A stretch of 64,000 bases of DNA from an uncultured bacterium (GTDB lineage Bacteria > Hydrothermota > UBA3072), in contig CAZGHN010000006.1 in NCBI GenBank assembly GCA_964525555.1, forward strand, positions 74,805 through 138,804. Reading direction: 5' to 3'. Positions 1 through 61,253 of the stretch are shown here, piece by piece. Position numbers and translations under genes: made by a program. Each line of letters opens with the position of its first letter. Positions within the stretch are counted from its first letter, which is position 1. The notes below the pieces were generated by a model, which was given only the letters and a program-made list of their open reading frames with translations, did not search any database and was not told the origin of the DNA.

Positions 1-389
1 AACAATGGATAAAAGTAGATGTTGGCTCAACTAAAATATCTCCAAAAGGTAAATATGTTATGGTTTTAGACCGTTACCTGATTGATTTCACTGACGTTAA
101 ATCGGGGAAATCTCTCTGGCGAAAGAAAACAGGGGGCGAAGGCGGAATGGTTGAAGTCTTTTACGGCCTTGACGATGAATACATTGTTATAGAGGGACAG
201 TCAAACGAATACCTGACCTTCTTTTTGAATGAATATCGTGATTACAATATTTTTGTACTTAAATCGTCTTCGGGAGAAGTTGTAGGGAAATTTAAAGGAT
301 ATCAGCTTTCCTTCTCTAGTGAGTATAATATTTTATTTTTTAAAAATGGAGATACTCTTTTCTTTTACCAGCTTACTTTAGAGAAGTGA
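1..389 (+). CDS. hypothetical protein, C-terminal part (5' end outside window)
   Basis: Frame of ORF 60..389 stays open back to nt 3; no recognisable motif. Confidence 0.35.
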   Translation, partial: QWIKVDVGSTKISPKGKYVMVLDRYLIDFTDVKSGKSLWRKKTGGEGGMVEVFYGLDDEYIVIEGQSNEYLTFFLNEYRDYNIFVLKSSSGEVVGKFKGYQLSFSSEYNILFFKNGDTLFFYQLTLEK

Positions 390-460
390 CTGATGTCTTG
401 GTTAACCACAGATAGCCCAAACAATTTTGTTTTTTTAATTCAACATTCAAAATTCATAAT

Positions 461-532
461 TCAAAATTCTTAATCAATGCTTCGCATTGCTCCCTTGACT
501 TATGAGAATGATTTTTTAAATTTTATACTATG
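461..532. repeat. 72-bp interspersed element, copy 1 (palindrome CAATGC-TTC-GCATTG plus TTGACT and TATACT boxes)
   Basis: Exact 72-nt identity with 2046..2117; both copies preceded by TTCAAAAT oligo-repeats. Confidence 0.8.
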
Positions 533-1232
533 AGTATAAGAACAGTAATAGGAAAGTATAAACAGGAATCGGGCAAATTGTAAAAAGCATCGATGTTATA
601 ATAATTATCCATAATGTTACTCTCTGTAAAGTAGTTAAATTCTTTGCTCTATCACGTTTTATCAGTAGACCTACATCAAATATAAATAAAAGAGGTAAAA
701 CAAAAGGTGTGAATATAATAACAACCGAAAGTGGTAATATTTGAAGAGCATGACCAAAACCCATGAAAGTAAAGCTAAAGAAAAAGTAAAGCCATACCCA
801 TAAAACAATTTTAATTACTTTATCTCTTAAAAAAAGCTCCTCTTTTACATCCGAAAAAGAAAGCGACATTCCTGCAGGTTTCATTATCAGTGTTAGTAAA
901 CCAACTATAAGCCCTATCAATCCCCAGCCAATAGCGTTAACCAGCATTACCAGAGGATGAAAAAATCCTGTTTCAACATTATATTCGACCACTCCATTAA
1001 TTACATTGGAAACAGGATATATTTTTAACAGTAAACTTGGCCAATTGGCTATATAAAAAAGATTAGCGCCCACATTAACATAATCTTCTCCAACAGACAG
1101 AAATACACTTGTTGAGAGATCCCAAAATTTCAGTATCCAGAGCAACCCTATGAAAAATAACACTACAGTAATTATAAGTTTTGCTTTTTTAGATATTTTT
1201 TTCTTCATATATTTATTTTTACTAGTTCTCAT
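528..1232 (-). CDS. multi-pass integral membrane protein, function unknown
   Basis: 234-aa ORF with several long hydrophobic segments; lies between the two 72-bp repeat copies. Confidence 0.5.
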   Translation of the reverse strand: MRTSKNKYMKKKISKKAKLIITVVLFFIGLLWILKFWDLSTSVFLSVGEDYVNVGANLFYIANWPSLLLKIYPVSNVINGVVEYNVETGFFHPLVMLVNAIGWGLIGLIVGLLTLIMKPAGMSLSFSDVKEELFLRDKVIKIVLWVWLYFFFSFTFMGFGHALQILPLSVVIIFTPFVLPLLFIFDVGLLIKRDRAKNLTTLQRVTLWIIIITSMLFTICPIPVYTFLLLFLYS

Positions 1233-1346
1233 TTAAAAGTACTAAATTTCTATAAATTATCAACTCAACAACTAACACGAATGGTTTTTTTTGTTTTTGA
1301 CTTACGACTCGCTAAACCCGTAAAACTACGATCCACGATTCCGAAC

Positions 1347-1916
1347 TCAAAATCTATACGAAAGCGATAGTCCATAGCTTTCATGTTCTATATCGATTTC
1401 TGGCGATAGATAAAAACCTCTGTAATCACGAGCTGAACGATTGTATTTTTCGACCGAGTTCGGGCAGGTCCATATGTCAAACACAATAGACCCAAAGGTG
1501 GCCGCACCTGAAATTATTGTACCCCAAAGATACAAATCCTCATTTTCGAAATTTGCATCGTGTACATCACTAACAACGCTCAGGAGTCCGAAACTGCTCC
1601 AGAGAAAGGTGCCGGTACTGATTGCCCTAAAACCAGCAGACATGAGCCCTCTTTTTGTGTTTCCGGCATAGAAATGACCCACACTTGGTCCGACAACAAT
1701 CCCGGAGACGGATACCAAAAAACTTCCTCTGAATAAAAAATCGTTGTAATCCCCATTATCTAAACAGATACAAAACGCTATGCCGGAAAGAAATGTCGCC
1801 CCGATTGAGTAGGCAGTTGCAGTGGTTGAACTCTTTAACTCCAGTGATTTCCTCTCGTTGCCGTAAGTTACGCAGAAAGTAAATAACAATAACACTATTG
1901 AAATTTTATATTTCAT
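1347..1916 (-). CDS. small secreted outer-membrane beta-barrel-like protein
   Basis: Start placed at internal ATG 1916 preceded by AGGAGGG (1922-1928); signal-peptide-like N-terminus MKYKISIVLLLFTFCV; Gly/aromatic-rich; C-terminal ...LSYRF (terminal Phe typical of OMPs). Confidence 0.5.
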   Translation of the reverse strand: MKYKISIVLLLFTFCVTYGNERKSLELKSSTTATAYSIGATFLSGIAFCICLDNGDYNDFLFRGSFLVSVSGIVVGPSVGHFYAGNTKRGLMSAGFRAISTGTFLWSSFGLLSVVSDVHDANFENEDLYLWGTIISGAATFGSIVFDIWTCPNSVEKYNRSARDYRGFYLSPEIDIEHESYGLSLSYRF

Positions 1917-1954
1917 AATAACCCTCCTAATATCAAAGTACTTTGTTATATAAA

Positions 1955-1984
1955 GTAATATAATAATTTTTTTGGATTTGTCAA
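1955..1984 (-). promoter_or_regulatory. sigma70-like promoter (TTGACA-N16-TATATT) preceded by C-tract, for 1347..1916
   Basis: Minus strand reads CCCCACCCCCC-TTGACA-aatccaaaaaaattat-TATATT. Confidence 0.45.
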
Positions 1985-2045
1985 GGGGGGTGGGGGTGAC
2001 TGTTGGCTGGGTTTTTGTTTTCATTCAAAATTCAAAACTCAAAAT

Positions 2046-2117
2046 TCAAAATTCTTAATCAATGCTTCGCATTGCTCCCTTGACTTATGAGAATGATTTT
2101 TTAAATTTTATACTATG
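2046..2117. repeat. 72-bp interspersed element, copy 2; probable promoter/operator region of the 2207-6301 operon
   Basis: Identical to 461..532; lies about 90 nt upstream of 2207 on the same strand. Confidence 0.8.
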
Positions 2118-2206
2118 GGTATATGTTCTTATTTAGCTGTTCGACGATTTGACTGCTCTTTTATGTTTAAGAGCTATAAGTCTATTCAAAGGAGGTTTAT
2201 TGAAAA

Positions 2207-2872
2207 ATGATTGCAAAATTTAATCTATATGATTTCGTAGCAGCGGTAATACCTGGAATTCTATTTATCTGGGTATTTTCTTTGTTCTCGAGTTCCATAG
2301 ATATTCCTATTACTGGTGGACTTGCTGAAACCTCAATTCTTGTGGCTTTGGGATATGTGATTGGGATGATGCTACAAGGAATTAGCCAATTATTCACAGA
2401 AAAGATTTTATTGATACTTTGGGGTGGTTTTCCGTCTGCACGTTGGCTTCTCGAAGAGGATAATAAATTCAGCAGAGAATATAAAAACAAATTAAAAAAA
2501 TTAGTTGAAGATAAATATTCTGTTAAAATTGACGACAAACTGTCCAAAGAAGAACGTCTGAAGAAAAACCAAGAAGTTTTCTATCTTTGTTACAATGCCG
2601 TTGAAAAAGAGCGAATTAGCGACAGGCCTTATATATTCAATGCGCATTATGGTCTATTCAGATGCCTTCTAACCACATTTATTCTACTTTTTTTTGTTGA
2701 GCTGTACGCTCTTTTAATAGATAAACAGCAAAATAAAGCCGTTATCTATAGTGTTCTAATTCTTAGTATCATTGGTATAATAGTAAGTTATTTTCGTGCG
2801 AAACAGAGAGGCGAGGATTTTGCTAAATCTATCTATGATCTTTTTTTGGTGCGATTTTCAGAACGAGAGTAG
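2207..2872 (+). CDS. membrane protein (two N-terminal and two C-terminal TM helices), first gene of the MBL/E2-E1-JAB operon; possible effector
   Basis: Hydrophobic helices FVAAVIPGILFIWVFSLF, ILVALGYVIGMMLQGI, LLTTFILLFFVELYALLI, VIYSVLILSIIGIIVSYF; RBS AAAGGAGG before ATG; stop 16 nt before next gene. Confidence 0.55.
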   Translation: MIAKFNLYDFVAAVIPGILFIWVFSLFSSSIDIPITGGLAETSILVALGYVIGMMLQGISQLFTEKILLILWGGFPSARWLLEEDNKFSREYKNKLKKLVEDKYSVKIDDKLSKEERLKKNQEVFYLCYNAVEKERISDRPYIFNAHYGLFRCLLTTFILLFFVELYALLIDKQQNKAVIYSVLILSIIGIIVSYFRAKQRGEDFAKSIYDLFLVRFSERE

Positions 2873-2888
2873 CTAGGGAGGGTAATAG

Positions 2889-3956
2889 ATGTCAAACGTA
2901 GCAAAAGACATAATCATTCCAACTGAGCCTAATATCTTCCGAACAATATTCCTCTATGTCGGACAAGGAGACTCTACATTGCTAGTAGTCCCTGCGGGAG
3001 ACGGGTATAAGTATGTATTAATAGATTCAAATTATGACGAAGCCGCTGGTGGTATAGATATTATCAAACTCCTTGAGAACCTTTTCGAAGAAGAAGACGA
3101 AGGTTTAGATGTTTATATAAACACCCATCCCCATAAAGATCATCTCGGAAAGGTTAGGGAAATATATGAAAAGATAGGTATTGGCCAATTATGGCATTCA
3201 GGGCACAAGCCAGGCGGCGAGCATAATGAATCTTATAAAGACCTCGAATTTGTAATCAAAAAACTTGGGGAAGAAAATGTATTTCGCCTTCGAGGTAGCA
3301 GGGAAGAAAACAAATTAGATGAAGAAAAAATTATACTAGGCGACATAAATTACAACATTTTGGGCCCTGCCGATTATGTATCCGATGAAATAGAAGACGA
3401 AAAACCCAAAGAAAGATATACTAGGATTCATGAGCAATGCGCGGTAATTCGATTTAAATACGGAGAAGAAGAGAAACAGATACTCATTACTGGAGATGCA
3501 GATTACAAAGCATGGAAAGAACATATTACTGATTACCACGCGGATAGACTTCCTTCGACAGTGTTAAATGCTGCTCACCATGGTTCAAGGTCTTTTTTCT
3601 GGAAAGATGATAATATGGAGGAAGACCCTTACAAAAAACACTTAGAGAAAATCAAACCGACTTATATTACAGTTAGTGCCCCAAAAGAAAAGGAAAGTAG
3701 GCACGGCCACCCTCATAAAGAAGCCTTGAAGTTATACAAGGAAGAAGTAGGAACTGATGATAAGGTTTTTCATTTAGGCAAGAAAAGAGAATGCATAATT
3801 GTTGATATATACGCCGATGGTGATATAGACCTCTATCCTAATGATGAGTTGGTTAAGAGATATGGAAAAAAGAACGGAGACAATGGGGGTGACGACAAAA
3901 GAACAGGGATTCCGCCAACAGTCACAAAAATCGACAAGAAACCAATGGGTACTTGA
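2889..3956 (+). CDS. metallo-beta-lactamase-fold hydrolase (ComEC/Rec2-like MBL subfamily)
   Basis: GQGDS near N-terminus and HxHxDH motif THPHKDH (nt 3122-3142); later His/Asp ligands (HSGH, TGDADY, AAHHGS); strong RBS GGGAGGG; stop overlaps next start (TGATG). Confidence 0.75.
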   Translation: MSNVAKDIIIPTEPNIFRTIFLYVGQGDSTLLVVPAGDGYKYVLIDSNYDEAAGGIDIIKLLENLFEEEDEGLDVYINTHPHKDHLGKVREIYEKIGIGQLWHSGHKPGGEHNESYKDLEFVIKKLGEENVFRLRGSREENKLDEEKIILGDINYNILGPADYVSDEIEDEKPKERYTRIHEQCAVIRFKYGEEEKQILITGDADYKAWKEHITDYHADRLPSTVLNAAHHGSRSFFWKDDNMEEDPYKKHLEKIKPTYITVSAPKEKESRHGHPHKEALKLYKEEVGTDDKVFHLGKKRECIIVDIYADGDIDLYPNDELVKRYGKKNGDNGGDDKRTGIPPTVTKIDKKPMGT

Positions 3957-6301
3957 TGGAATGGTTCGCTCGTCACACTGGCTGGTTATATAGAGAAACA
4001 AGGGAACTTTCAAAAAATTCAATCTACAGTGAACAGCACCAATTTATAGACAAAACACTCATATCTAGCGGTAATATCTTAGTCCATAAGATAAAAACAG
4101 AATACTTTCCGATTTTAATCGTATATCCTGAAGCTACACCTTATGTCCCTCCTACGATATACCTTTTAGAAAATGAGATAAGTGAGGAAACAGCGAAAGA
4201 ATATTCGGAGCTTTCTCCTGAAGAGATAAGAAAAAGCGTAAAGGATAACATTGCATTTTTCTATAGGCGACATCAGAATGAAGATGGAAGCGTATGCTTT
4301 GTTGAAAGGGGTGACTTACATGATGAAAACCCAGAGAAATATCCTATTGAAAACATAATTAAAAGGTTGAGGGTATGGCTGTCTGGAAAGAAGATACCAA
4401 AGGACAGTCGTGAAGTTGAACTGTTTTATCATTTTCCAAACAGAACTTACGAAATTCAGTATCTCCTGCCGGATTTGTTCTTTGATAGGGAAATAGTAAA
4501 AGGAAAATTCTTTGCAGGACTGTCCAGCCTTATTACAGCAAAATACTTTACAGATGGTACCGAGAAAAGGACATTCATGGGAGTAATGATAGTCGGGGAA
4601 ACACAAGGAGGTGTGTCTCTTCCTCCCAAGTATTATGTAAAAAAACAGCTAATTCTATTTACTCACATTCCGGATATAGAGCATTTGATAACAAATAATG
4701 AGGAAAAAGCAAAGAAAATAGAAAATGGGGAATTAATAGAAGGACACTGGTGGAATATTACTAAAGAGCCTCTACCCTTTTCAAAATTAAATGAGCTTGC
4801 AAAATATATCGGTAACAATGATGAGGTAAAAGGATTTGATATGATGGTAGAAAGCTTAGAATCTGAATTGAAAGCATTTGAAGACTTCATTCACGTAGGA
4901 ATCAGATTTCCCGGAAGGTATAGAGAAAGAGATTGGCAAATGTTTAGACTCAACAAAGGAAGCCGTCCACCAATTATTGTATCCCAAAGGGAAGAATTGA
5001 AACAGCGGGTGCTCGATTACTCTATCGAAGCAGTGTATCAGGAGTATCTTACTGATGATTATTTCCACATGCGAAATAAGGGAAGAGCCGATAGAAGTAT
5101 CTTGAAGAATAAAACTATATCAATTATCGGTTGTGGTGCGCTTGGCTCTGAAACTACTGATGCACTGAGTAAAGCCGGAATAGGAAGATTTATTCTAGTA
5201 GATAGAGAAGTGATGAGGGCTCACAATACTGTTAGGCATAGTCTGGGTATAAATAAAGTAAGCATACCTAAGGCATGTGGTATGGCGGAACATTTGATTC
5301 TTCACAATCCTTTTATAAATATTGAATGGGAACATGAAGACATTCTGCTTGCCAAGATCGAAGATTATTTGCCCGAGGGTGCTATTGGGGTTTCAACCAT
5401 AGCTGATGACAATATAGAAGCTTACCTTAATGAAATAGCCATGAGTCAGGGAAGAACAATCTTCTATTGTAGGGCTTTGCGTGGTGGGAAAGCCGCGCGC
5501 ATATTCAGGGTCGTTCCGCAGATAGATGCATGCAAGACTTGTTTGGGGCTTTATCTCAGAGATAAAAATCCCTTTTTTATTAATATCCCAGAAGATGAGA
5601 GTCTTCCGGTTATAACAAATGAGTGCAACAACCCAGTAAGGCCTGCGAGTGCGGCCGATATGAAAATGATCTCTGGAGTTTTTGCGAGAATCATCATTGA
5701 TTTCCTACAGGGTAAGAGAACAGATAACAACCATTGGATTTGGACATCCGAATCTCTGGAAGGATTGAATATGGAAAATTCAACATATGGGTTTATAAAT
5801 GCAGAAAGCATAGCACCACACCCTCATTGTCTTGTTTGCCAGAAATTGGAAGACGCGAAAGTATATATTTTAAAAGATGTATTGGACTTCATGAAACGGG
5901 AAGCAACAAAATCTGGTAAAATCGAAACAGGGGGAGTTTTAATTGGACACATGTTGGCTAAAGGTGAGTATAAAATTTTAAAAGCAAGTAAGCCTGGCCC
6001 AAATGCTATAAGAACCGAGAATCGCTTTGAGAAAGATGAAAAATATTGTCAAAAAGTGCTTTTGGATGCTTTTGAAGAGCTCGATGATCAAGGCCTTTAT
6101 TTAGGAGAATGGCATTATCATCCTTTGGGTAGCAACGAACCAAGCGGAATAGATATCAATAGCCTAACAGAGATAGCAATTCAAGACAACTACCGGATAG
6201 ACAAACCAATAATGATAATATTATCACCGAAGTTGGAATATGCAATTACAATTCATAATAGGTTTGGCCGATGTGTTAAAATACCCTTGAAGATTGTATG
6301 A
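3956..6301 (+). CDS. E2(UBC-like)-E1(ThiF/MoeB-like)-JAB/MPN(JAMM) triple-domain ubiquitin-like conjugation enzyme
   Basis: N-terminal UBC-like signature YPEATPYVPP...RRHQNEDGSVCF (HPN-like motif plus Cys, nt 4271-4297); central Rossmann ISIIGCGALGSETTDALSKAGIGRFILVDREV (nt ~5123-5200); C-terminal JAMM motif E...HYHPLGSNEPSGID matching HxHx7Sx2D (nt 6113-6160). ATG 3956 used; ORF track begins at TTG 3953. Confidence 0.8.
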   Translation: MEWFARHTGWLYRETRELSKNSIYSEQHQFIDKTLISSGNILVHKIKTEYFPILIVYPEATPYVPPTIYLLENEISEETAKEYSELSPEEIRKSVKDNIAFFYRRHQNEDGSVCFVERGDLHDENPEKYPIENIIKRLRVWLSGKKIPKDSREVELFYHFPNRTYEIQYLLPDLFFDREIVKGKFFAGLSSLITAKYFTDGTEKRTFMGVMIVGETQGGVSLPPKYYVKKQLILFTHIPDIEHLITNNEEKAKKIENGELIEGHWWNITKEPLPFSKLNELAKYIGNNDEVKGFDMMVESLESELKAFEDFIHVGIRFPGRYRERDWQMFRLNKGSRPPIIVSQREELKQRVLDYSIEAVYQEYLTDDYFHMRNKGRADRSILKNKTISIIGCGALGSETTDALSKAGIGRFILVDREVMRAHNTVRHSLGINKVSIPKACGMAEHLILHNPFINIEWEHEDILLAKIEDYLPEGAIGVSTIADDNIEAYLNEIAMSQGRTIFYCRALRGGKAARIFRVVPQIDACKTCLGLYLRDKNPFFINIPEDESLPVITNECNNPVRPASAADMKMISGVFARIIIDFLQGKRTDNNHWIWTSESLEGLNMENSTYGFINAESIAPHPHCLVCQKLEDAKVYILKDVLDFMKREATKSGKIETGGVLIGHMLAKGEYKILKASKPGPNAIRTENRFEKDEKYCQKVLLDAFEELDDQGLYLGEWHYHPLGSNEPSGIDINSLTEIAIQDNYRIDKPIMIILSPKLEYAITIHNRFGRCVKIPLKIV

Positions 6302-6492
6302 TAAATAGATTTGCAAGAACCATTTTTAGAAATTAACAGACTTAGACATTGAAATGATTTCATAGATTCTTCGAATCAGTTGAATTGTCAAATCGTTGAA
6401 TAGTTGGATAGTAAGAAAAAACTTCGTGTCTTAGTGTCTTCGTGGCTAATTAGGGGTTGTGGGTTGCTGTCAGCCGTGAGCGGTCAATCGTC

Positions 6493-6520
6493 TTGACAAA
6501 TCGATTTATCTTTTTAATAT
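6493..6520 (+). promoter_or_regulatory. sigma70-like promoter TTGACA-N16-TAATAT for thi4
   Basis: TTGACA 6493-6498, TAATAT 6515-6520, RBS AAGGAGGG 6566-6573, ATG 6577. Confidence 0.5.
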
Positions 6521-6576
6521 CAATAAATTAAATATTTGATGAGTATATTCTTAAGTTTTAAGTCAAAGGAGGGTTA

Positions 6577-7368
6577 ATGAAGCTTGATGATGTAGAGATA
6601 TCGAAAGCGATAATTGATAACTACTACAAAAAATTGCTGGATTCCTTAGAGCTGGATGTGGCTCTTGTCGGGGCGGGTCCTTCAAATCTTATAGCTGGAA
6701 TACTTTTAGGAGAAAAGAAAATTAAAACTGCTGTTTTTGAATCAAAGCTCGCTCCGGGTGGAGGTGTTTGGGGTGGGGGAATGATGTTTAATGAGGTGGT
6801 TGTTCAGGATTCGGCTTTGCATATTTTGGATAAAGTCGGTGTGGATTATAAAGAAAAAAAGAAAGGATACTATACCGCGGACAGCGTTGAATTGGCTTCG
6901 ACTTTAATTTCAAAATGCGTTAAATCGGGAGTAAAAATATTTAACCTTATTAAAGTTGTGGATGTCATGTTCAGAGAGGAAGATGGCGAGAAAAAGGTTA
7001 ATGGACTTGTGCTTCAATGGTCTCCGATTGAGCATATTGGATTACACGTAGACCCCTTAACGGTAAGAGCTAAATTTGTTGTAGACGGAACCGGACATCC
7101 CGCAGAAGTTTGTTCTGTTCTTTCAAAGAAAATAGATGCGAGGCTCAGTACTAGAACGGGTAAAGTGATTGGTGAAATGTCTATGTGGGCTGATAGGGGG
7201 GAGGAATTGACTGTTAGTAATACTTCGGAGGTTTTTCCCGGTCTTTTTGTAACCGGTATGGCTGCAAATGCTGTAAAGGGCGCTCCGCGCATGGGTCCCA
7301 TTTTTGGAGGCATGTTGCTTTCGGGTGAGAAAGTCGCAAAGATTATCTCACAGAGGACACAACAGTAA
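6577..7368 (+). CDS. thi4: thiazole synthase, Thi4 family
   Basis: Dinucleotide-binding motif VALVGAGPSNLIAG; Thi4-like length and layout; next to thiE. Confidence 0.75.
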   Translation: MKLDDVEISKAIIDNYYKKLLDSLELDVALVGAGPSNLIAGILLGEKKIKTAVFESKLAPGGGVWGGGMMFNEVVVQDSALHILDKVGVDYKEKKKGYYTADSVELASTLISKCVKSGVKIFNLIKVVDVMFREEDGEKKVNGLVLQWSPIEHIGLHVDPLTVRAKFVVDGTGHPAEVCSVLSKKIDARLSTRTGKVIGEMSMWADRGEELTVSNTSEVFPGLFVTGMAANAVKGAPRMGPIFGGMLLSGEKVAKIISQRTQQ

Positions 7369-7449
7369 TTATGAATGTTGAATGTTAAATGTTGAATTCA
7401 AAACTCAAAATTCAAAATCCTAAATCCCAATTTGAAGGTTTAAAGCAGA

Positions 7450-8046
7450 ATGGATTTTAATTTCGGGGCATATGTTATAACGAGTAAAGATCACGTAAAA
7501 ATAGCCCGGGAGGCGTGCGAAGGCGGGGCACGCGTTGTTCAATATAGAGATAAAACTTCCATAAAGCAAGAAGTGTTGAATATTGCCGATAAAATCAGAG
7601 AGATAACGAGTAATTTTAATTCATTATTTATTGTTAATGATTTTATCGATATAGCTTTAATGTCGGGAGCGGATGGGGTTCATCTGGGACAGGATGATAT
7701 GCCGCTGCCGAGGGCAAGAAAAATCGTTCCTGATAATTTTATTATCGGTGTTTCCACCAATTCGTTGGAACAGGCGCTTAAGGCAGAAGAAGCCGGAGCC
7801 GATTATATCGGAATTGGTCCTGTTTTTGCTACGCCTACTAAAAAAAATTATAAGCCCATCGGGCTTTCTGCAGTTAAGGGAGTACTTGCCAGTGTAAGAA
7901 TTCCTGTTGTTGCTATTGGAGGTTTAAATCTTGATAATATCGGTGAGTTAACTGGAATAGGTGTTAGAAACGTTGCAATGGTAAGAGCCTTTCAAGAAAA
8001 TACAAGGGAAAAAGTCGAAAAAGTTAATTTTTTGCTGAAAGTATAG
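7450..8046 (+). CDS. thiE: thiamine-phosphate synthase
   Basis: ThiE-like TIM-barrel motifs GADGVHLGQDD and IGPVFATPTK. Confidence 0.8.
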   Translation: MDFNFGAYVITSKDHVKIAREACEGGARVVQYRDKTSIKQEVLNIADKIREITSNFNSLFIVNDFIDIALMSGADGVHLGQDDMPLPRARKIVPDNFIIGVSTNSLEQALKAEEAGADYIGIGPVFATPTKKNYKPIGLSAVKGVLASVRIPVVAIGGLNLDNIGELTGIGVRNVAMVRAFQENTREKVEKVNFLLKV

Positions 8047-10164: not shown

Positions 10165-11094
10165 ATGGGTGTAAATTTAAAAGAGTTATCTAAAAAAGAA
10201 GATTTGTTTGCCTCCGGGCATAGGGCATGCGCGGGTTGTGGTCCTGCGATAGCATTAAGACAGGCGCTTTTAGTTTCGGGAAAAGATACAATCGTGAGTT
10301 TTGCAACAGGTTGTATGGAAGTCGTATCTACAATATTCCCATACTCGTCCTGGAAAGTACCTTATATGCATTCTCTTTTTGAAAATTCTGCAGCTACAAT
10401 GAGTGGAATTGAGTCCGCTTATAATGCTTTAAAAAGAAAAGGGAAAGTAAAAAAGAATATAAACTTTATTGCATTCGGCGGAGACGGCGGAACTTATGAT
10501 ATTGGTCTGCAATCTCTATCAGGAGCAATGGAACGCGGGCATAACATGCTCTATATCTGTTACGATAACCAGGCTTACATGAATACCGGTATTCAGAGAT
10601 CCGGTGCTACTCCTTATGGCGCGAGCACAACAACCTCGCCGGCCGGAAAAGTAATTCCCGGTAAAAATAGACGTAGGAAAAACCTAACAGAAATTATGGC
10701 TGCGCATAATATTCCTTACGTTGCTCAAGCTTCTATCTCCGAATGGAGAGATTATATGACCAAGATAGAGAAAGCTCTTTCTCTTCCCGGTCCAAAATTT
10801 ATGGTCGTTTTTGCCCCATGTCAGCTTGGATGGTATTACAAAAAAGAAAACACAATTAAAATTGCCGATATGGCTGTTAAATCCAGATTTTGGCCGTTAT
10901 ATGAAGTAGAGAATGGTGTACATAAGATTACAAAGGATCCCAAAAAGGTTATTCCTGTTGAAGAATGGTTGAAGTTACAGGGAAGATTCAGGCATTTATT
11001 CAAAGGAGAAAACAGAAAAATTATTGAAGAAATCCAACAAGAAGTAGACGCCAACTGGGATAGATTAAAGAAGTTAGAGGAGGCAGGCGTTTAG
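10165..11094 (+). CDS. porB: pyruvate/2-oxoacid:ferredoxin oxidoreductase, beta subunit (TPP-binding)
   Basis: Cys ligands CAGCG...C and TPP motif GGDGG...YDNQAYMNTG. Confidence 0.8.
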   Translation: MGVNLKELSKKEDLFASGHRACAGCGPAIALRQALLVSGKDTIVSFATGCMEVVSTIFPYSSWKVPYMHSLFENSAATMSGIESAYNALKRKGKVKKNINFIAFGGDGGTYDIGLQSLSGAMERGHNMLYICYDNQAYMNTGIQRSGATPYGASTTTSPAGKVIPGKNRRRKNLTEIMAAHNIPYVAQASISEWRDYMTKIEKALSLPGPKFMVVFAPCQLGWYYKKENTIKIADMAVKSRFWPLYEVENGVHKITKDPKKVIPVEEWLKLQGRFRHLFKGENRKIIEEIQQEVDANWDRLKKLEEAGV

Positions 11095-11580
11095 ATGCCA
11101 ACTAAAGAAGAATCATTTGAAGCAGAATTTCAATCGATAAAAGATAATTTGGAAGACCTTTGCAGGGAGACAAAAGCGCTCTCGGTCTTGCTTATAGATA
11201 AGGCCGGGCAACTTATAACCTCTGCCGGGAATGTTTCTTCTATTGATATACCATCTTTTGCCACTCTATCGGCGGCTGATTTCGCAGCCACTTCAAATCT
11301 TGCAGATTTGATCGGAGAACATGATTTTTCAACTCTGTTTCACCAGGGAGTTCAAAAGAGTATTTATGTTTCATTAATTGCGGATAAGGTAATTCTTGCA
11401 GTTATTTTTACAAAGGAGACAACGCTGGGTTTGGTGCGTATAAAGGTTAAAAAAACGGCAGAAAAACTGGCAGGTTTGTTCGGAAAGATATTCGATGTTC
11501 TTGAGAGTGAGTATTCTGGAGCGGTAGATGATGATTTTATTAGTGAAGCGGAAACGGAACTTGATAGTCTTTTTGAATAA
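11095..11580 (+). CDS. mglB: Roadblock/LC7-domain protein (MglB-like GTPase-activating partner)
   Basis: Roadblock-like alpha/beta pattern; immediately upstream of MglA-like GTPase; start abuts porB stop. Confidence 0.6.
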   Translation: MPTKEESFEAEFQSIKDNLEDLCRETKALSVLLIDKAGQLITSAGNVSSIDIPSFATLSAADFAATSNLADLIGEHDFSTLFHQGVQKSIYVSLIADKVILAVIFTKETTLGLVRIKVKKTAEKLAGLFGKIFDVLESEYSGAVDDDFISEAETELDSLFE

Positions 11581-12173: not shown

Positions 12174-12205
12174 TTAACGCGGCACAGCCGCGTTAATTTT
12201 GAATG
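12174..12205 (+). terminator. intrinsic terminator ending the por-mglBA operon
   Basis: Perfect 10-bp stem TTAACGCGGC-aca-GCCGCGTTAA followed by a T-rich run. Confidence 0.65.
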
Positions 12206-12235
12206 TTGAATTTTAAATTTTGAATTAGGAATTCC

Positions 12236-12583
12236 TTACAGTTTCTCTTTACTGGTTTTTACTATTGAGGTTAAAATTTTAATAATGTCATCAATTTCTT
12301 TAATATATATTTCAACATCACATTTTACAATTTGAGATCTTTGAATTAATCTTAGCCAATATTTAGTTTCACGAGCTTCTTTTGAAGAAATAGCCATTTT
12401 GTTTGTAAAGTCCTTTTTGCTCTGAGCCGCAGAAGCTTCTTCGATATTTGCTCCAATACTTGTTCCACTTCTTAGAACTTGCTTGGACAGAACGTATTCA
12501 TTATTTGCAATCATTTGTCTATACAGATCGATTATCTTTAATGCAAAATCAAAACTTTTATCTTTAATTAAATTCTCTTTCAT
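12236..12583 (-). CDS. four-helix-bundle protein (23S rRNA intervening-sequence protein family)
   Basis: Family-like motif GANIEEASAAQSKKDF...SSKEARETKYWLRLI. Confidence 0.65.
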   Translation of the reverse strand: MKENLIKDKSFDFALKIIDLYRQMIANNEYVLSKQVLRSGTSIGANIEEASAAQSKKDFTNKMAISSKEARETKYWLRLIQRSQIVKCDVEIYIKEIDDIIKILTSIVKTSKEKL

Positions 12584-12721
12584 TTTGTACCTTTTGTTAG
12601 TTCAGAATTCTAAATTAATAATTCATTACTTTTTTTAAGTTTTTCATTCAAAATTCAAAACTCAAAATTCAAAATTGTCATAGTTCATAATTATTATCAT
12701 TTTTGGATTTCTCTATATACT

Positions 12722-22629: not shown

Positions 22630-22658
22630 TTTTACCGCAGAAGACACAAAGAATAAAA

Positions 22659-22802
22659 ATAGGATTAGAAGCAGTGCAAGTCAGCAATTCTGGGATTATG
22701 GATTAAGTGGTAGTTTCTTTCTTAATCCTCGCTTTTCTTCGAAGCTTCTCATCTAATCCTTAATCCTAGCTCGACTACCAGGTGTTCTACTAATCCTCGA
22801 AA
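22659..22802. repeat. ~145-bp interspersed element (family R1, subtype i)
   Basis: Near-identical to 25128..25271 over about 110 bp; first ~55 bp shared with 28204.. and 29061.. Confidence 0.75.
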
Positions 22803-22854
22803 CCTTGCCCCCTAAACTTTAATCAACTACGAGCAAGGAACAAAGAACTCTTTA

Positions 22855-25002
22855 TTACCTTATCCTTATTACTTTCTTTGAAATTTTAATGTTTCCTGAT
22901 TTTAGTATACCAAAGTACAATCCCGACCCGAGTTTATTGCCTGAATGGTCGCTTCCGTCCCACAAAATAATTGTTGGAGAAGAGCTATTATTTTCTAAGG
23001 AAAAGGATTTTACCAGCTGTCCGTTTACGTTATAAATGGAAAAAGCGGCATCTTTTATGCTATTGTTACCGGCTAGATAGAGAATAAATTCCGTTCTATT
23101 GCTGAAAGGATTAAGCGAGATATTGAAACTTAGAGGTATTGAGTTGTTTGTAGGGGTTTCTATACCTGCTTCTTCATCCTGAAGGACCCAGACTGTTCCA
23201 CCCTCGTGACACATTACGTAGATTTTGTTCGTTTGCGAATTTACTCCAACTTCCCAGGGGGCATCTCCGACTTCGATAGTCGTAATCACGGAATCTGTAT
23301 TTCCGTCAATTACACTGGTATTGTCATTATACTCATTTGCTGCAAAGATGTGGTTCGACTGTGGGTTTACACCTAGTCCTTTTGGCCAGTTTTCGACATC
23401 AATAGTGTCAATCACTAAGTTAGTAGCCCCATCGATTACATGGATACTATCGCATGCAACATATATTCTGTTTGTCTGTGGGTTTATGGCGATCCCTTCA
23501 GGCCAGCTGCCGACCGCAATAGTGTCAATCACGGAGTCAATAGCACCATCGATTGCAACAACACTGTGATTATCCGATTCTGTCACATATATCCGGTTTG
23601 TTTCCGGATTTATGCACATTCCTGATAGCCAGCTTCCAATTGCAGCTGTATCAATAACGGAGTTAGTTGTGCCGTCGAGTACGACAACCTTAGTATTATC
23701 TTCTATTACATATATCCGGTTTGTTTGCGGATTTACGGACATATCTGATATCCAGCTTCCAATTGCAATAGTATCGATCAAGGTGTTAGTAGTTCCGTTA
23801 ATAACGCTAACCTCGTTCTCAGTTCCTACATATATCCGGTTTGTTTCCGGATTCACGCAAACTTCTGACGTATAACCTCCGAGTTCAATGCTGGTAATCA
23901 TGGAGTTGGTAACTCCGTCAATTACGTTGACGCTGTAGCTTTCTCCAGTTGTTACATAAGTTCGGTTTGTTTGTGGATTTACGGCAATATCATTGGGTTG
24001 AACTCCAAGCACGATAGTAGTAATGAGGGTGTGGGTAGTTGCGTCAATCACACTGGCAGTGTGGTTCCAATAATTCGCCGTATATATACGGTTCGTTTTC
24101 AGATTTATAGCAAGCTCCCGCGGTTCGCCTCCAAGTGCGATGGTATCAATAAGTGAATCGAGTGTTACATCAAACACGGTAATAGCGTAGTTGTTTCTGT
24201 CTAAAGAGTAAAGATGGTTGGTTTGTGGGTCTAGACTTATACTGGATGGTCTATGTCCGACATCAATAGTGTCAATCACAGAGTCAGTCTCACCGTCAAT
24301 TACAAAAATGTTACTATAATCATAATTTGCAACATAGATTAGATTTTTTATAGTATCTACCTCAACTCCGAGAGGTCGGTTTCCAACATCAATAGTGTCA
24401 ATCACGGAATCTATAGTTCCGTCAATTACGTGAACATCTTCATCAGCCCAGTTCGTTACATATATGCGCCTGGTTTTTGGATTTGCATCGATTCCATTTG
24501 GCATATTTCCAACCGTAATAGTAGTGATCAAAGAGTTGGTATTGGCATCGATAACACTAACATTGTCGTCACCTTCATTTGCCGTATAGATGAGGTTATT
24601 CTTTGGGTCTATGCTAATTTTATCGGGAGAGTTTCCGATTGCAATAGAATCAATTATGGAGTCAGTTGTCCCATCAATCACATAAATATTGTCGGTGGCC
24701 GGATTTGTCGTGTAAATAAGGTTTGTTTCAGAATTCACTCCGATTTCCCTTGCTGCGTTTGCTAATTCAATAGAGGCAATGACAGAATTGGTTGTACCGT
24801 CGATCACGGAAACATTGTCTGTGAATAAATTTACCACATAGATACGGTTTGTCGCATCATTTACATCAATTGCTGTAGGGCGCAATCCGTTTCCCGATTC
24901 TGGGCGAAGGTATATTGTATCAATAACCGTAACCTGGCTGAACCCAATAATTGTGTAACAGAATATTATAACTGACAATGCGCCTTTTTTTGAAAAAAAC
25001 AT
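22855..25002 (-). CDS. YVTN-family beta-propeller repeat protein with T9SS-type C-terminal sorting domain
   Basis: Many ~43-aa repeats (N..IYV.N..sv.ViDg.T); signal peptide from ATG 25002 with RBS AAGGAG; C-terminal beta-sandwich tail. Confidence 0.7.
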   Translation of the reverse strand: MFFSKKGALSVIIFCYTIIGFSQVTVIDTIYLRPESGNGLRPTAIDVNDATNRIYVVNLFTDNVSVIDGTTNSVIASIELANAAREIGVNSETNLIYTTNPATDNIYVIDGTTDSIIDSIAIGNSPDKISIDPKNNLIYTANEGDDNVSVIDANTNSLITTITVGNMPNGIDANPKTRRIYVTNWADEDVHVIDGTIDSVIDTIDVGNRPLGVEVDTIKNLIYVANYDYSNIFVIDGETDSVIDTIDVGHRPSSISLDPQTNHLYSLDRNNYAITVFDVTLDSLIDTIALGGEPRELAINLKTNRIYTANYWNHTASVIDATTHTLITTIVLGVQPNDIAVNPQTNRTYVTTGESYSVNVIDGVTNSMITSIELGGYTSEVCVNPETNRIYVGTENEVSVINGTTNTLIDTIAIGSWISDMSVNPQTNRIYVIEDNTKVVVLDGTTNSVIDTAAIGSWLSGMCINPETNRIYVTESDNHSVVAIDGAIDSVIDTIAVGSWPEGIAINPQTNRIYVACDSIHVIDGATNLVIDTIDVENWPKGLGVNPQSNHIFAANEYNDNTSVIDGNTDSVITTIEVGDAPWEVGVNSQTNKIYVMCHEGGTVWVLQDEEAGIETPTNNSIPLSFNISLNPFSNRTEFILYLAGNNSIKDAAFSIYNVNGQLVKSFSLENNSSSPTIILWDGSDHSGNKLGSGLYFGILKSGNIKISKKVIRIR

Positions 25003-25127
25003 ATACTTCTCCTTATTTTTACAGACAAATATATTTTGTTTTCCTATTATGTCAACCATTTACTTATAAAAATATCAGTTTATTACTTATAAGGTATTTT
25101 TGTTGCAGAGAGAACACAGAGAATAGA

Positions 25128-25275: not shown

Positions 25276-26163
25276 TCATTCAAAATGTCTATATCCCCTT
25301 GGGGGAGTGAGTTCGTCGTCGATGTAAACACCTTTTCCGTTTGTTACATACCCGATTTCACGGACAAATTTCTCCTTTATATCATCCGGGGAGGTAAAAA
25401 GGAGTTCAAATTCTTCTCCTGATGTCAAAATTGATTCTTTTAAATCAAGAGAATGTTTTTTAGCAAATTGCTTACATTCAGGATGTTGAGGTATATTTTT
25501 GAAATATATATTAAGTCTTTTTCCGCTTTCTTTCGATATATGGTTGGAGTCTATTAAAAATCCATCTGATATATCTATCATAGAATTGATTCGGTATTTT
25601 TTTGTAAGCTTAATAGCTTCTTCGCATCTTATTTCAGGTTTTAGGTGATATTTGGTTACAGGGGATTTTACATTGTTCTGTAATGCGAAGAATCCCATAT
25701 AGGCTCCGCCAAGATTTCCGGTCAGGTAAATTTTATCATCTTTTTTTGCACTGGAGCGTAGTATTGGTTTTTTTGTAGTACCTACAACTGTAATAGATAG
25801 AAATAAAAAAGGGGATCTTGCTGTGTCTCCTCCCAGTAATTTGACGGAATATTTTTTCTCGAGGTATTGCATTCCGCGAAAAATTTCTTTGATTTCTTTA
25901 ATAGTTTGATTTTGTCTGATTCCAAGGTTTAGAAAATACGAATTTGGTTTGCCGCCTGAGGCTGAAATGTCAGATAGGGCAGAAGCCAGGGCTTTGTATC
26001 CGATATTATAAGGGGAAAAAATAGAGGGAGTAAAATGTACTCCCTCTATAAATGAATCTGTACTTACGATCTGTTTGCGGCTTATTTTAACTGTATCATT
26101 TCCAATCCAGGCTCTGTTTCTTCTTAGGGTCTGGATTATTTGTTGTTCCAGATCGTTAAATAT
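25276..26163 (-). CDS. thiL: thiamine-monophosphate kinase; N-terminus lacks a canonical start codon
   Basis: Frame open from stop at 26185-87; upstream part encodes IGNDTVKI...STDSFIEGVHF...YKALASALSD...GGDT matching ThiL; ORF track starts at internal ATG 25872. Confidence 0.6.
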   Translation of the reverse strand: MFNDLEQQIIQTLRRNRAWIGNDTVKISRKQIVSTDSFIEGVHFTPSIFSPYNIGYKALASALSDISASGGKPNSYFLNLGIRQNQTIKEIKEIFRGMQYLEKKYSVKLLGGDTARSPFLFLSITVVGTTKKPILRSSAKKDDKIYLTGNLGGAYMGFFALQNNVKSPVTKYHLKPEIRCEEAIKLTKKYRINSMIDISDGFLIDSNHISKESGKRLNIYFKNIPQHPECKQFAKKHSLDLKESILTSGEEFELLFTSPDDIKEKFVREIGYVTNGKGVYIDDELTPPRGYRHFE

Positions 26164-26168
26164 TTTTA

Positions 26169-26444
26169 CTACTTTACAGCGTCTTTAAGGCTTTTGCCTG
26201 CACGGAAAATAGGAACTTTTCGCGCTGGAACTCTTACTGTCTGATTCGGTTTCTGGGGATTCCTTGCGATTCTTGCTTTCCTGTGTTTGACGTCAAAAAC
26301 TCCAAACCCTACCATTACTACTCTGTCGCCCTTTTTCAGTGCCTTGACGATATTGTTGATGAGACTTTCTGTCATTTCTTTGGCTTCTGATTTTTTGCAC
26401 CCACAATCTTTCGCTACTGCGTCAATCAATTCCTTTTTATTCAT
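26169..26444 (-). CDS. hup: HU-family DNA-binding protein
   Basis: MNKKELIDAVA...GFGVF...PARKVP typical of HU/IHF. Confidence 0.85.
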   Translation of the reverse strand: MNKKELIDAVAKDCGCKKSEAKEMTESLINNIVKALKKGDRVVMVGFGVFDVKHRKARIARNPQKPNQTVRVPARKVPIFRAGKSLKDAVK

Positions 26445-26818
26445 TTAATAGCCTCCTTTTATTGTTACATAAGAAGTTTAAGCATTTTTGCTTATATGTC
26501 AAGGGTTTTTTTTAATATATGGTTAAAAATTTGCTAAAAGTCTTTTTTTATTTTTTAAACAAATTAGCTGTTTTTATGCAAATAAAACACAGAGCCAGCC
26601 TTTCTACGTGCCTTATTTTTTAGCCACAAAAGACACAGAGATTTTCTTTTATGTTTTTAAAGCTCAACGCACTACCTTGAATTAGCCGCAGATTTTCGCT
26701 TATAAATACGGGTTTCCCACCTACCCATTCTTTAATACTTTTTTGTTTTTAAATATTGAAATAAATTTTTTTAATCTGTGGGAATCCGTGGCTAATTTCG
26801 CCGGGGGTGGGGATGGGC

Positions 26819-26846
26819 TTGACAAGCGGGTTTTGATGGGTATATT
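26819..26846 (+). promoter_or_regulatory. strong sigma70-like promoter TTGACA-N16-TATATT with no ORF close downstream
   Basis: GTGGCTAA and GGGGGTGGGGATGGG tract immediately 5'; nearest + strand ORF starts at 27127. Confidence 0.45.
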
Positions 26847-27126
26847 CTATAAATCGACAAGGCCGATAAAATGTAAAAATAAAAATTCAAAATGGAAAAA
26901 TACAAATCAGAGTTCAAAAATATAAAAAAAAGAGAAATAACAAATTACACGAATAGCACAAAGGTTTTGGGGGGGTGGAGAAGAGATAATTTTACATTTT
27001 CATTTGTAATTTTGCTTTTTAAAATTTGATATTTTAATTATGAAAGAAATGAGATAATTTAAGTGAAATATTTTTTTGCAAGAAAAATAAAAAGTTAATT
27101 ATTTATAATGTAAAAACGGAGGATGC

Positions 27127-27381
27127 ATGCCGACATATGAATATGAGTGCTTAAAATGCAAGTATATATTCGAAAAATTTCAGGGAATAAAAGAGGAACC
27201 TTTGAAAAAATGTCCCAAGTGTGGTGGAAAAGTGAAAAGACTGATTGGTACAGGGGCAGGAATAATATTTAAAGGGAAAGGTTTTTATCATACTGATTAC
27301 AAAATATCGTCTAAAGATAGTATCGGTAAGAGAAAGTCGGAAATTAGTGAAAGTAAAAATTCGAGCAAGGATAAGGATTAA
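27127..27381 (+). CDS. FmdB-family zinc-ribbon protein
   Basis: MPTYEYECLKCKYIFE...CPKCGG. Confidence 0.7.
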   Translation: MPTYEYECLKCKYIFEKFQGIKEEPLKKCPKCGGKVKRLIGTGAGIIFKGKGFYHTDYKISSKDSIGKRKSEISESKNSSKDKD

Positions 27382-27401
27382 TAGTCATTAAAATATTAGT
27401 A

Positions 27402-28203: not shown

Positions 28204-28348
28204 ATAGGATTAGAAGCAGTGCAAGTCAGCAGTTCTGGGATTATGGATTAAGTGGTAAGTTAAAATTTAGTCCAAAGTCCAAGGTCCTAAGTCCAAAGTC
28301 TTGAGTCAAAACTAAATCCTAAATCCCAAATCAAAACCCCTAGTATTA
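28204..28348. repeat. ~145-bp interspersed element (family R1, subtype ii)
   Basis: Near-identical to 29061..29204; together they flank gene 28440..28970 as direct repeats. Confidence 0.75.
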
Positions 28349-28439
28349 CTGATTTACTGATTCACTAATTTACTGATATACTGAAATTCCATTTCAAATA
28401 TTCAACAATTCGACCATTCAACTGATCCGAAGGATCTTT

Positions 28440-28970
28440 CTATCTAGAAGTTTTAAGGATTTGATCTAATAACTCATTATTTGTTTTTAATTCTTCCCAA
28501 ATAAGATCCGGGGAAGAGAAGCAGTCGAAAGGGTTTTTCTCATTCCATGAGATATGGTTTAAAGATAAATCTCCTTTTGGTCTAATGTAGAATCGGAATT
28601 CCCAGGTAAGTGGAGTTCCCAAATGGTAACTTATATAATATAAACGTATATATTTATTGCTGCCCGGAAGATAACTTGTGTTAATAAGGTTATATTCATA
28701 AAAATCTCCATATCGCCCATTCGGAGGTTCAATGAAAATACTGTCTAATTTAGTTCTATAATCATTTTTAGTTTTTTCTTTTGTGTCTTCATCCAAGTAA
28801 TAACCAGTTTCTTCAACTATCATTCGAGCGATTTTTTCTGTTCGTTTATTTTTGAGGTCATCGAAAAATTTTACAACAAATTCATTTACTTGTTTATCTG
28901 CTATTTGTTTATCTATTTTAGCTGTTATATATAAAGGAACGAACATAAGTATAAGAATATAAATTTTCAC
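28440..28970 (-). CDS. secreted hypothetical protein (GTG start) preceded by an rhs-core-like promoter module
   Basis: Signal peptide; upstream 28994-29025 is homologous to the rhs HLDRLGSP coding segment. Confidence 0.5.
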   Translation of the reverse strand: MKIYILILMFVPLYITAKIDKQIADKQVNEFVVKFFDDLKNKRTEKIARMIVEETGYYLDEDTKEKTKNDYRTKLDSIFIEPPNGRYGDFYEYNLINTSYLPGSNKYIRLYYISYHLGTPLTWEFRFYIRPKGDLSLNHISWNEKNPFDCFSSPDLIWEELKTNNELLDQILKTSR

Positions 28971-29060
28971 ATAGTCCTCCTTTTTTATTAATGAGTGTAA
29001 TAAGGGGTACCGAGTCTGTCAAGATGGGTTTAATTCTCACACTGAGACACAGAGACCAAA

Positions 29061-42140: not shown

Positions 42141-42405
42141 ACAGTATATCAGTGAATTCGTGAATCAGTAAATTAGTATACTTATTTTACTAATAACTAA
42201 GTAATGTTGCCTTTGTGTGAGAAATTAGGTTTTAGGTCTTTGGTTTTGGGTTTTAGTAAAGAAGAAAATAAAATCTCTACATGTTCTACATGTTAAAAAT
42301 TAAATGGGGTGTGTTGTGTTTTAAATAAACACACATCATTCTTTTTTTCAGTGTGCTCTGAGTTTTTTTCTTTGTGCTCTCCGTGTCTTTGTGTGAGAAT
42401 CTATT

Positions 42406-45043: not shown

Positions 45044-45180
45044 ACAAAAAACATTTAACACAGAGTACACAGAGAAAAACAAAAAACACAGAGATCACAG
45101 AGAAAAAACTATGTTTCGTGTTTTTAAAACCCAACCCGCCTCAGTTAATTTTTCACATGTAGAACATGTAGGTATTGTAG
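45044..45180. repeat. ~137-bp interspersed element (family R2): four CACAGAG boxes plus conserved block with CATGT-AGA-ACATG palindrome
   Basis: Over 90 percent identical to 60998..61134; both sit just upstream of promoters of secreted-protein genes. Confidence 0.8.
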
Positions 45181-45411
45181 TTTTGTTTTTTACAATTTAA
45201 CTATTTTTCTATTTAACAATTCAACTGATTCGAAGAATCTATAACACTGATTCACCGATTCACTATTTTACTGAATCACTGCTGTCTATTGATGCAATTT
45301 TTTCATAAGTGATACCGTTGATATTTTCATTGGTGACCCCAATTATACGCCAATTACGCAATTACAGAAGATTCAAAACCAATTTCATTGATATTGAATA
45401 TCAAAGTAATC

Positions 45412-60997: not shown

Positions 60998-61134
60998 CAA
61001 AAAACATTCACCACAGAGAACACAGAGAAAAAGAAAAAACACAGAGCACACTGAGAAAAAAACTATGTTTCGTGTTTTTAAAACCCAACCCACCTCAGTT
61101 AATTTTTCACATGTAGAACATGTAGAAATTGTAG
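60998..61134. repeat. ~137-bp interspersed element (family R2), copy upstream of rhs
   Basis: See 45044..45180. Confidence 0.8.
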
Positions 61135-61253
61135 ATACTGTGTTCTCTTTGATTATTTTACTAATTAACAAATATACTAATCAACCAATTAACAGATTCG
61201 AAGAATTTTTGAATCTAAATCAAAAGATGCAATTTTTTCTTAGGCGGTACCAA

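Follow-up and report, generated by a model that had tools for sequence, protein, structure and literature searches.

The repeat and its anatomy

The DNA analysed here, a 64-kb stretch of contig CAZGHN010000006.1 (assembly GCA_964525555.1) from an uncultured bacterium, referred to below as the window, carries near its left end two copies of a short sequence, which is named R. The core of R lies at 458-532 (copy 1) and 2043-2117 (copy 2) in the same orientation, is an exact match of 75 nt with the copies 1585 nt apart, and brackets a segment of about 1.5 kb that contains two minus-strand open reading frames (ORFs), 528-1232 and 1347-1916. A match of this length in 64 kb of DNA with 36.5% G+C cannot be due to chance. 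Copy 1 follows the stop (389) of an upstream gene on the plus strand and overlaps, at its other end, the last codons of the convergent gene 528-1232. Copy 2 is located between two divergent units, the minus-strand gene 1347-1916 and a plus-strand operon that starts at 2207 and is preceded by GGAGG at 2191-2195. A first reading made without database searches (the sequence-only reading) had described 461-532 and 2046-2117 as identical, which is correct, the exact match being slightly longer at 75 nt. It had also placed the repeats at the head of the operon, named there for its E2-E1-JAB gene; this applies to copy 2, and copy 1 heads no transcription unit.

Gapless similarity around R extends over 112 nt (427-538 against 2012-2123; 94%), with mismatches at positions 429, 432, 437, 444, 453, 457 and 533. 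All of the six left-hand mismatches fall within the left flank, a 31-nt array of ATTCAAA-type heptamers on the plus strand (427-457 in copy 1, 2012-2042 in copy 2), and none in the core; under uniform divergence, such a distribution is expected with a probability of about 6e-4. With Tandem Repeats Finder (TRF), the arrays before both copies, of about 4.6 units each, are delimited at 437-469 and 2023-2054. The oligo-repeats that the sequence-only reading had noticed before both copies are thus present, and they prove to be generic to the intergenic spacers of this genome.

From left to right, each copy is composed of the heptamer array, a first palindrome, promoter hexamers and a second palindrome. 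Palindrome 1, CAATGC-TTC-GCATTG (6-3-6), is found in both copies as originally noted (475-489 and 2060-2074) and ends 5 nt before the -35 hexamer. When up to two mismatches are allowed, CAATGCTTCGCATTG occurs in the window just at these two positions, with 0.07 occurrences expected by chance, and it is regarded as a candidate operator or activator site. Palindrome 2, TATACT-ATG-AGTATA (6-3-6; 524-538), spans the predicted start site and can form a 9-bp hairpin. It is perfect in copy 1, where it extends over the stop and the final codons of ORF 528-1232 on the minus strand, and imperfect (5-5-5) in copy 2, where TATACT-ATG lies at 2109-2117. The exact repeat stops at 532, within this palindrome.

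R does not have the properties of a structured RNA such as a riboswitch, small RNA or leader. On folding, copy 1 has a z-score of -2.4 and copy 2 one of +0.3, with only two short local hairpins; neither an element-wide hairpin nor terminal inverted repeats were found in either copy. R matches no Rfam family, whether at gathering scores or at E<=1, and contains no tRNA gene. A function as intrinsic terminator was considered and rejected, as a U-tract is absent after either hairpin. A leaderless small ORF starting from the shared ATG was likewise rejected, since it would have 17 codons in one copy and 31 in the other, so that its length is not conserved. The 31-codon ORF (2115-2210) starts from the ATG that closes the exact repeat, and its stop overlaps the first start codon of the operon (ATGA). 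It is not conserved in relatives, and by our own estimate would be open by chance with a probability of about 10%.

The predicted promoter within R

TTGACT at 495 and 2080 is followed by TATACT at 524 and 2109 with a spacing of 23 nt, just as the sequence-only reading had stated. Its conclusion that R holds no canonical sigma70 promoter was mistaken, because another hexamer, TAAATT (517-522 and 2102-2107), had been overlooked; TATACT starts one base after it. The promoter scan finds (CCC)TTGACT-16-TAAATT on the plus strand at 495-522 in copy 1 and at 2080-2107 in copy 2 (-35 hexamer at 2080-2085), with 9 of 12 consensus positions. As far as the sequence indicates, R therefore takes the form of a sigma70-type promoter, with a -35 hexamer, a 16-nt spacer and a TAnnnT -10 hexamer.

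CCCTTGACT-16-TAAATT in R fits a pattern that recurs in this genome, cCTTGAC[AT]-16/17-TAnnnT, which is called the house pattern here. The window contains 22 matches to TTGAC[AT]-15..18-TAnnnT, 13 of which are in non-coding DNA (11% of the window), and eight of the nine matches to CCTTGAC are also non-coding. Of the former matches, 11 are intergenic and outside R; most are located 38-204 nt before a start codon on the same strand, two lie about 600 nt from one, and a C-rich run before TTGAC is common to most of them.

The two copies differ in what they face. The ATG at 2207 follows the -35 hexamer of copy 2 at a distance of 127 nt, and this copy is likely to be the promoter of the downstream operon, judging from pattern and position. 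From the -35 hexamer of copy 1 it is 1712 nt to the next plus-strand gene; ahead of this copy lies the convergent gene 528-1232, into which its predicted start would read antisense. No plus-strand ORF of at least 40 aa follows copy 1 before 1441, and the one found there is antisense inside another gene. If TAAATT is taken as the -10 hexamer, the predicted start sites are at about 529-531 in copy 1 and about 2114-2116 in copy 2. Identity between the copies ends almost at these positions (532 and 2117), indicating that the duplicated part comprises a promoter and its upstream region rather than a transcribed leader.

The bracketed genes

The sequence-only reading had described the bracketed segment as encoding a multi-transmembrane protein and a small protein resembling outer membrane proteins (OMPs). 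The two ORFs and the multi-pass protein stand; the second protein is predicted to be helical. The minus-strand ORF 528-1232 encodes a 234-aa multi-pass membrane protein, whose true start is probably the codon at 1211 that begins MKKK. It has 24 homologues of 42-100% identity, nearly all of them in the range of 74-100%. In one locus (L019), 28 nt separate the homologue from a full-length 1654-aa RHS/YD-shell protein before it; those of L006-L011 and L016 come after orphan toxin-tip fragments, and that of L005 stands alone. The Rhs array of L019 also carries a Y1-transposase gene (PF01797, 331 aa; 10343-11338). The Rhs tips after the DPxGL motif in L019 (1008-5972), L006 (7166-7903) and L016 (5484-5972) are 72-82% identical among the three and share a PLA2-like CCxxHDxC motif, with weak Pfam matches to PLA2 (PF00068/PF08398). 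In all three loci, the PLA2-like tip is followed by a member of the 528-1232 family, so that the two may be put forward as a candidate toxin-immunity pair. The gene at 528-1232 is accordingly best read, from its relatives, as conferring immunity to a cognate Rhs-PLA2 toxin, from which it would be orphaned here; neither an Rhs gene nor a toxin fragment is present in the visible window.

The minus-strand gene 1347-1916 encodes a 189-aa secreted or membrane protein with 34 homologues, the alignment of which starts at MKYK. These homologues are solitary or tandem paralogues near genes for TonB receptors or OMPs and never stand beside the immunity gene, and the 189-aa gene thus appears unrelated to its neighbour. 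It is preceded by a promoter-like sequence of its own, (CCCCCC)TTGACA-16-TATATT at 1957-1984 on the minus strand, which agrees with the consensus at 11 of 12 positions in the promoter scan. In the AlphaFold2 (AF2) model (pLDDT 77), the protein consists of five helices and a C-terminal beta-hairpin, so that a helical protein without a beta-barrel is predicted; the model gives no significant fold match in the PDB. Neither the 234-aa nor the 189-aa protein has a match in Pfam, NCBIfam or PADLOC. For the partial gene upstream of copy 1 (3-389) no homologues were found, hence it offers no handle on a syntenic empty site.

The downstream operon

The operon downstream of copy 2 consists of three plus-strand genes. 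The first (2207-2872) encodes a membrane protein of the Csx27 family, with PADLOC matches to Csx27 (3e-13) and PDC-M48A and an NCBIfam match to NF040557 of 29 bits, below the model cutoff. The second (2889-3956) encodes a protein of the metallo-beta-lactamase (MBL) fold (PF00753; PADLOC PDC-M48B), which scores 63.6 bits against NF058524, the 6A-MBL enzyme, for which the cutoff is 220. The third (3953-6301) encodes an E2-E1(ThiF)-JAB fusion (PF00899 and PF14464; PADLOC E1-E2 and JAB), which scores 133.5 bits against NF058523, the 6A-MBL cap2_3 model, for which the cutoff is 320. In having genes for an MBL protein and an E2-E1-JAB fusion together with a Csx27-family protein, the operon resembles operons of the 6A-MBL type, from which it differs in that all three proteins fall under the NCBIfam equivalog cutoffs. 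From these scores it appears to be a distant 6A-MBL relative with the same domain architecture, not an equivalog. The class to which it is thereby related comprises defence operons that have been predicted or validated. Csx27-family proteins have been associated with components of ubiquitin systems (PMC8209922), and 6A-MBL has been reported among defence systems against jumbo phages (bioRxiv 10.1101/2025.09.30.679545). R thus marks the probable promoter/operator of a distant 6A-MBL-like defence operon.

In one of the relatives (L012), two palindromes of 14 nt, AGGCAGATCTGCCT and AGGCAGATTTGCCT, are found at about 200-270, upstream of the related operon; they are unlike those of R. Their presence suggests that such operons may be operator-controlled, by different sites in different genomes.

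Relatives and further copies

The genes on either side of copy 2 are separate modules. DNA homology to the loci that carry the immunity gene is limited to 547-1273 (L005) or 547-1209, and homology to three loci that carry the operon (L012-L014; 72-75% protein identity) covers just about 2193-6323, the flanks being unrelated. By nhmmer and short-word blastn, neither R nor palindrome 1 is present in the loci of relatives of either kind. These limits of homology and the absence of R indicate that 390-6323 is mosaic, made up of three or more modules that move independently, and that R is genome-specific. A clear foreign signature is not seen in the GC profile.

The sequence-only reading had allowed that the element might be a generic repeat occurring at dozens of unrelated sites. 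This was checked within the window, where there are just two copies of the core; nhmmer and short-word blastn detect no third copy, even a diverged one, in the 64 kb or in the fetched loci. A 19-mer from the palindrome region of R has three hits among 185,579 reference genomes, all in unrelated bacteria and without similarity in the flanks, and three is about the number expected by chance. When the spacer of palindrome 1 is left free, the search of the fetched loci returns just those three chance hits. No match to a 26-mer of R was found in JGI metagenomes, and none to a 25-mer in viral contigs. In the plasmid and phage collections, the sole match is to the heptamer array: (AATTCAA)x6, with the same unit as the left flank of R, is found in a spacer of a Nostoc flagelliforme plasmid, and the R core is not matched. 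Exact-protein look-ups of the E2-E1-JAB protein and the 234-aa and 189-aa proteins returned no match. For counting copies elsewhere, CAATGCNNNGCATTG is named as a search string beside the 75-mer of R.

An independent assembly of part of the locus exists in Logan. Its k=31 contig L001 (SRR14802572), of 5.3 kb, is identical to 2094-7385 of the window and breaks inside the repeat. The contig begins at 2094, 6 nt later than the position expected for a two-copy repeat (2088). This late start may mean that the sample contains another sequence with R up to 2123, either an additional copy or a variant from another strain.

Intergenic architecture of the window

The spacers of this genome are rich in short tandem arrays. 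Of the 33 arrays with a period of 7-9 nt in the window, 23 are in the non-coding 11% (binomial p ~4e-15). Their units include ATTCAAA, TGAATGT, GAATAGTT, CTTCGTGT, AGTCCAA, CTAAATC, TTACTGAT and CACAGAGAA, and examples are found at 6373-6444, 7372-7425, 12195-12233, 28269-28422, 42142-42294, 45245-45365, 61012-61135 and 61896-62048. There are five heptamer arrays altogether, those outside R being at 7395-7418, 12195-12226 and 12646-12676; the array region 2018-2053 of copy 2 is identical over all of its 36 nt to 12641-12676. The loci of relatives carry tandem arrays of other units, and the heptamer array of R and the other repeat modules of the window are absent from them.

Two further pairs of direct repeats bracket genes in the window. 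The pair 28204-28347/29061-29204 (144 nt, one mismatch, 99% identity) is located around the minus-strand ORF 28440-28970, and the pair 22658-22806/25127-25275 (149 nt) around the minus-strand ORF 22855-25059, which encodes an NHL/beta-propeller protein. In the latter pair, 10 of the 11 mismatches fall in the first 35 nt, a generic module, and the next ~110 nt are identical, which is the same pattern as in R. A 55-nt module, ATAGGATTAGAAGCAGTGCAAGTCAGCAGTTCTGGGATTATGGATTAAGTGGTA, has four copies in the window and is common to both of these pairs. Another spacer repeat, of 78 nt, has three copies (45103-45180, 61057-61134 and, inverted, 42269-42347), with 96% and 80% identity. Identity of repeat pairs in the window falls with distance, from 99-100% at less than 2.5 kb to 96% at 16 kb and 85% at 33 kb. 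Comparable repeats are found in the toxin-immunity arrays of relatives, where inter-cassette repeats of 100-300 nt are 97-100% identical and carry TTGAC promoters.

The repeat 22658-22806 is predicted to form a single long hairpin (-41.9 kcal/mol, z -3.7), the ends of which are GGATTAG...CTAATCC, and looks like a MITE or REPIN. The 78-nt repeat adjoins arrays of the CACAGAG type.

Origin of the repeat

R is best read as promoter-bearing intergenic DNA, neither a mobile element nor an RNA gene. The explanation towards which we lean, with confidence a little better than even, is that a promoter-bearing spacer was duplicated locally by recombination during the mosaic assembly of a variable island. 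The sequence-only reading had offered the footprint of a cassette insertion or duplication as one of two possibilities, and this fits the independent modules, the perfect core beside a diverged array, and the recurrence of the bracket pattern, twice more in the window and also in relatives. R would have been duplicated recently and locally when two unrelated genes came between the upstream gene and the operon. The left junction would lie in the heptamer array, which supplies homology, and the right junction at the start-site palindrome; we infer that recombination or gene conversion seeded in the generic array copied the adjacent 75 nt. Copy 2 would drive the Csx27-like/MBL/E2-E1-JAB defence operon, with the two palindromes of R plausibly serving as operator sites for a regulator. 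Copy 1, now antisense to the inserted genes, might permit read-through towards the operon or might be an idle by-product.

Several points weigh against this explanation. As for the promoter, sigma70-like matches in 1-8000 number 24, against 26.9 expected from shuffled sequence, and a match at 9 of 12 positions is accordingly weak by itself; since the hexamers alone are not enriched, it is the extended house pattern and the location that speak for a promoter. The real promoter of the operon could instead be another TTGACT, which lies beyond the repeat at 2149 with a 19-nt spacer to TATAAG. As for an operator, no gene for a DNA-binding regulator that would act on the palindromes was recognised within 8 kb. 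As for the duplication, the count of core copies covers the 64-kb window, part of a contig of at least 163 kb, and at 90% identity all of the window proteins tested are singletons. Because neither a cassette-free allele nor a close relative was found in searchable data, insertion or duplication is deduced from the anatomy of the locus only; either copy could be the original, the direction of copying not being decidable.

Of the other explanations, two survive about equally well, and each is regarded as unlikely. According to the first, R is a regulated operator-promoter that has been kept twice. A single regulator would bind the palindromes of both copies, copy 2 activating the operon and copy 1 silencing the immunity gene and the 189-aa gene by antisense transcription, reading through towards the operon, or both. 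The 6-3-6 palindromes stand at the classical positions for such control, 5 nt before the -35 hexamer and over the start site, and the core has stayed perfect while the adjoining array drifted, a fact that recency explains equally well; other repeat pairs of the window show the same identity pattern without a promoter. The promoter/terminator scan finds no plus-strand terminator-like site between the copies, and the operon of L012 also has two upstream palindromes, albeit of different sequence. However, a regulator gene is not found nearby, and neither the rest of the window nor the related loci contain the palindrome. The related proposal of the sequence-only reading, a regulator site shared by two transcription units, fares poorly, since a gene on the same strand follows copy 2 only; it is further weakened by the strong promoter that the gene 1347-1916 has of its own and, again, by the lack of a recognised regulator.

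According to the second, R belongs to a family of dispersed mosaic intergenic repeats (BIME/REP/Correia-like), neighbouring members of which have been homogenised by gene conversion without any insertion. The repeated use of the same modules in the spacers (the arrays, the 55-nt module in four copies and the 78-nt repeat in three) and the drop in the identity of repeat pairs with distance would both be expected in this case, and the start of the Logan contig at 2094 instead of 2088 hints at a further copy or variant. Against this reading, the core is seen just twice in 64 kb, where no third copy was detected even in diverged form; the core is also unmatched in reference genomes, JGI metagenomes and viral contigs, and an element-wide hairpin and terminal inverted repeats are absent.

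It is very unlikely that the copies of R are att-like sites of an excisable 1585-bp cassette, consisting of one R and two genes, that would integrate and excise by site-specific or homologous recombination in the manner of integrons or rAID-1 arrays. Direct repeats do surround an orphan immunity gene, the toxin-immunity arrays of relatives have near-identical inter-cassette repeats, and RecA can use perfect direct repeats of 75 nt to excise what lies between them. No integrase or recombinase is found inside the bracketed segment, however, nor was a recombinase detected in 1-8000 or among the 38 window ORFs scanned. The core sites of tyrosine recombinases require a palindrome spacer longer than the 3 nt present here. 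The intergenic repeats of rAID-1 arrays recall integrons (Ross et al., bioRxiv 10.1101/471110), but at R there are two copies only and no array, and the bracketed genes are unrelated, the 189-aa gene having its own promoter and no relation to immunity genes.

That the order R-cassette-R is an assembly artefact, a loop on a collapsed repeat that has been wrongly threaded, is likewise very unlikely: the source contig is metagenome-assembled and the independent k=31 assembly of SRR14802572 breaks inside the repeat, but a 75-nt repeat with distinct flanks can be spanned by reads of 100-150 nt or by large k-mers, and analogous bracket repeats are present in several independent JGI assemblies of relatives.

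Relation to known systems

Features of the kind to which R belongs are known, and R adds a new instance. As a functional part it resembles any regulated sigma70 promoter. As a repeat, it has a close parallel in the orphan arrays of Rhs and other polymorphic toxins, in which near-identical, promoter-carrying non-coding segments of 100-300 nt lie between short gene modules; moreover, the bracketed gene 528-1232 belongs to the immunity family found in the arrays of relatives. In contrast to those arrays, the promoter in R faces away from the immunity gene, in the direction of a defence operon unrelated to it, and there are two copies only.

Mosaic intergenic repeats that can carry promoters are also known from enterobacteria (BIMEs) and Neisseria (Correia elements). 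R resembles them in being modular, with a generic array and a specific part, in being located in spacers and in having promoter hexamers. It differs in that its core is not palindromic overall and is accompanied neither by terminal inverted repeats nor by a target duplication, and in that it is seen only twice. With the integron-like rAID-1 arrays (Ross et al., bioRxiv 10.1101/471110), the locus shares an orphan immunity gene beside a repeated intergenic sequence, whereas at R neither an XerD-type recombinase nor a co-oriented multi-gene array is seen, and the predicted role of R is to drive the operon beside it.

To the left of the R core lies a tandem array of heptamers of a kind found in non-coding DNA only, and this flank is reminiscent of the STRR heptanucleotide arrays of cyanobacteria, reportedly described by Mazel and co-workers in 1990. 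STRR sequences have been used as a fingerprinting target (PMC5088731). The likeness covers the flank only, not the 75-nt core, and the host looks non-cyanobacterial, judging from the Por_Secre_tail domains of the relatives and the salt-marsh-type metagenomes.

What is more unusual is the combination of array-rich modular spacers with recurrent local bracket repeats. On present data, the observations linked to R remain ordinary genome mosaicism, in which R dates a very recent rearrangement in a variable island with an orphan Rhs-immunity gene. If the bracket repeats do reflect a specific process of insertion or conversion, they would provide a handle on the shuffling of accessory genes in an uncultured lineage. 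A bolder possibility, to which we give a probability between unlikely and very unlikely, is that the modular repeats (heptamer and octamer arrays and longer modules) are landing pads for homology-seeded insertion or exchange of short gene modules, each event leaving near-identical duplicates of about 75-150 nt on both sides; R-cassette-R would then be one of at least three events in the 64 kb, with the cassette maybe still excisable, or else that R couples induction of the operon to antisense silencing of the immunity gene.

Other features of the window

House-type promoter matches at 26502 on the minus strand and at 26819 on the plus strand lie in a stretch of 1.5 kb (25873-27401) that has no ORF of at least 110 aa. 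The segments 28970-29034 and 61829-61893, each comprising a promoter and 5′ untranslated region, are alike (85% identity), and the ORFs that follow them, 28440-28970 and 61254-61826, are both without Pfam hits. Finally, a minus-strand gene at 12236-12583 encodes a protein of PF05635 (the four-helix-bundle '23S rRNA intervening-sequence protein'), and is flanked by heptamer arrays in inverted orientation, at 12195-12226 and 12646-12676.

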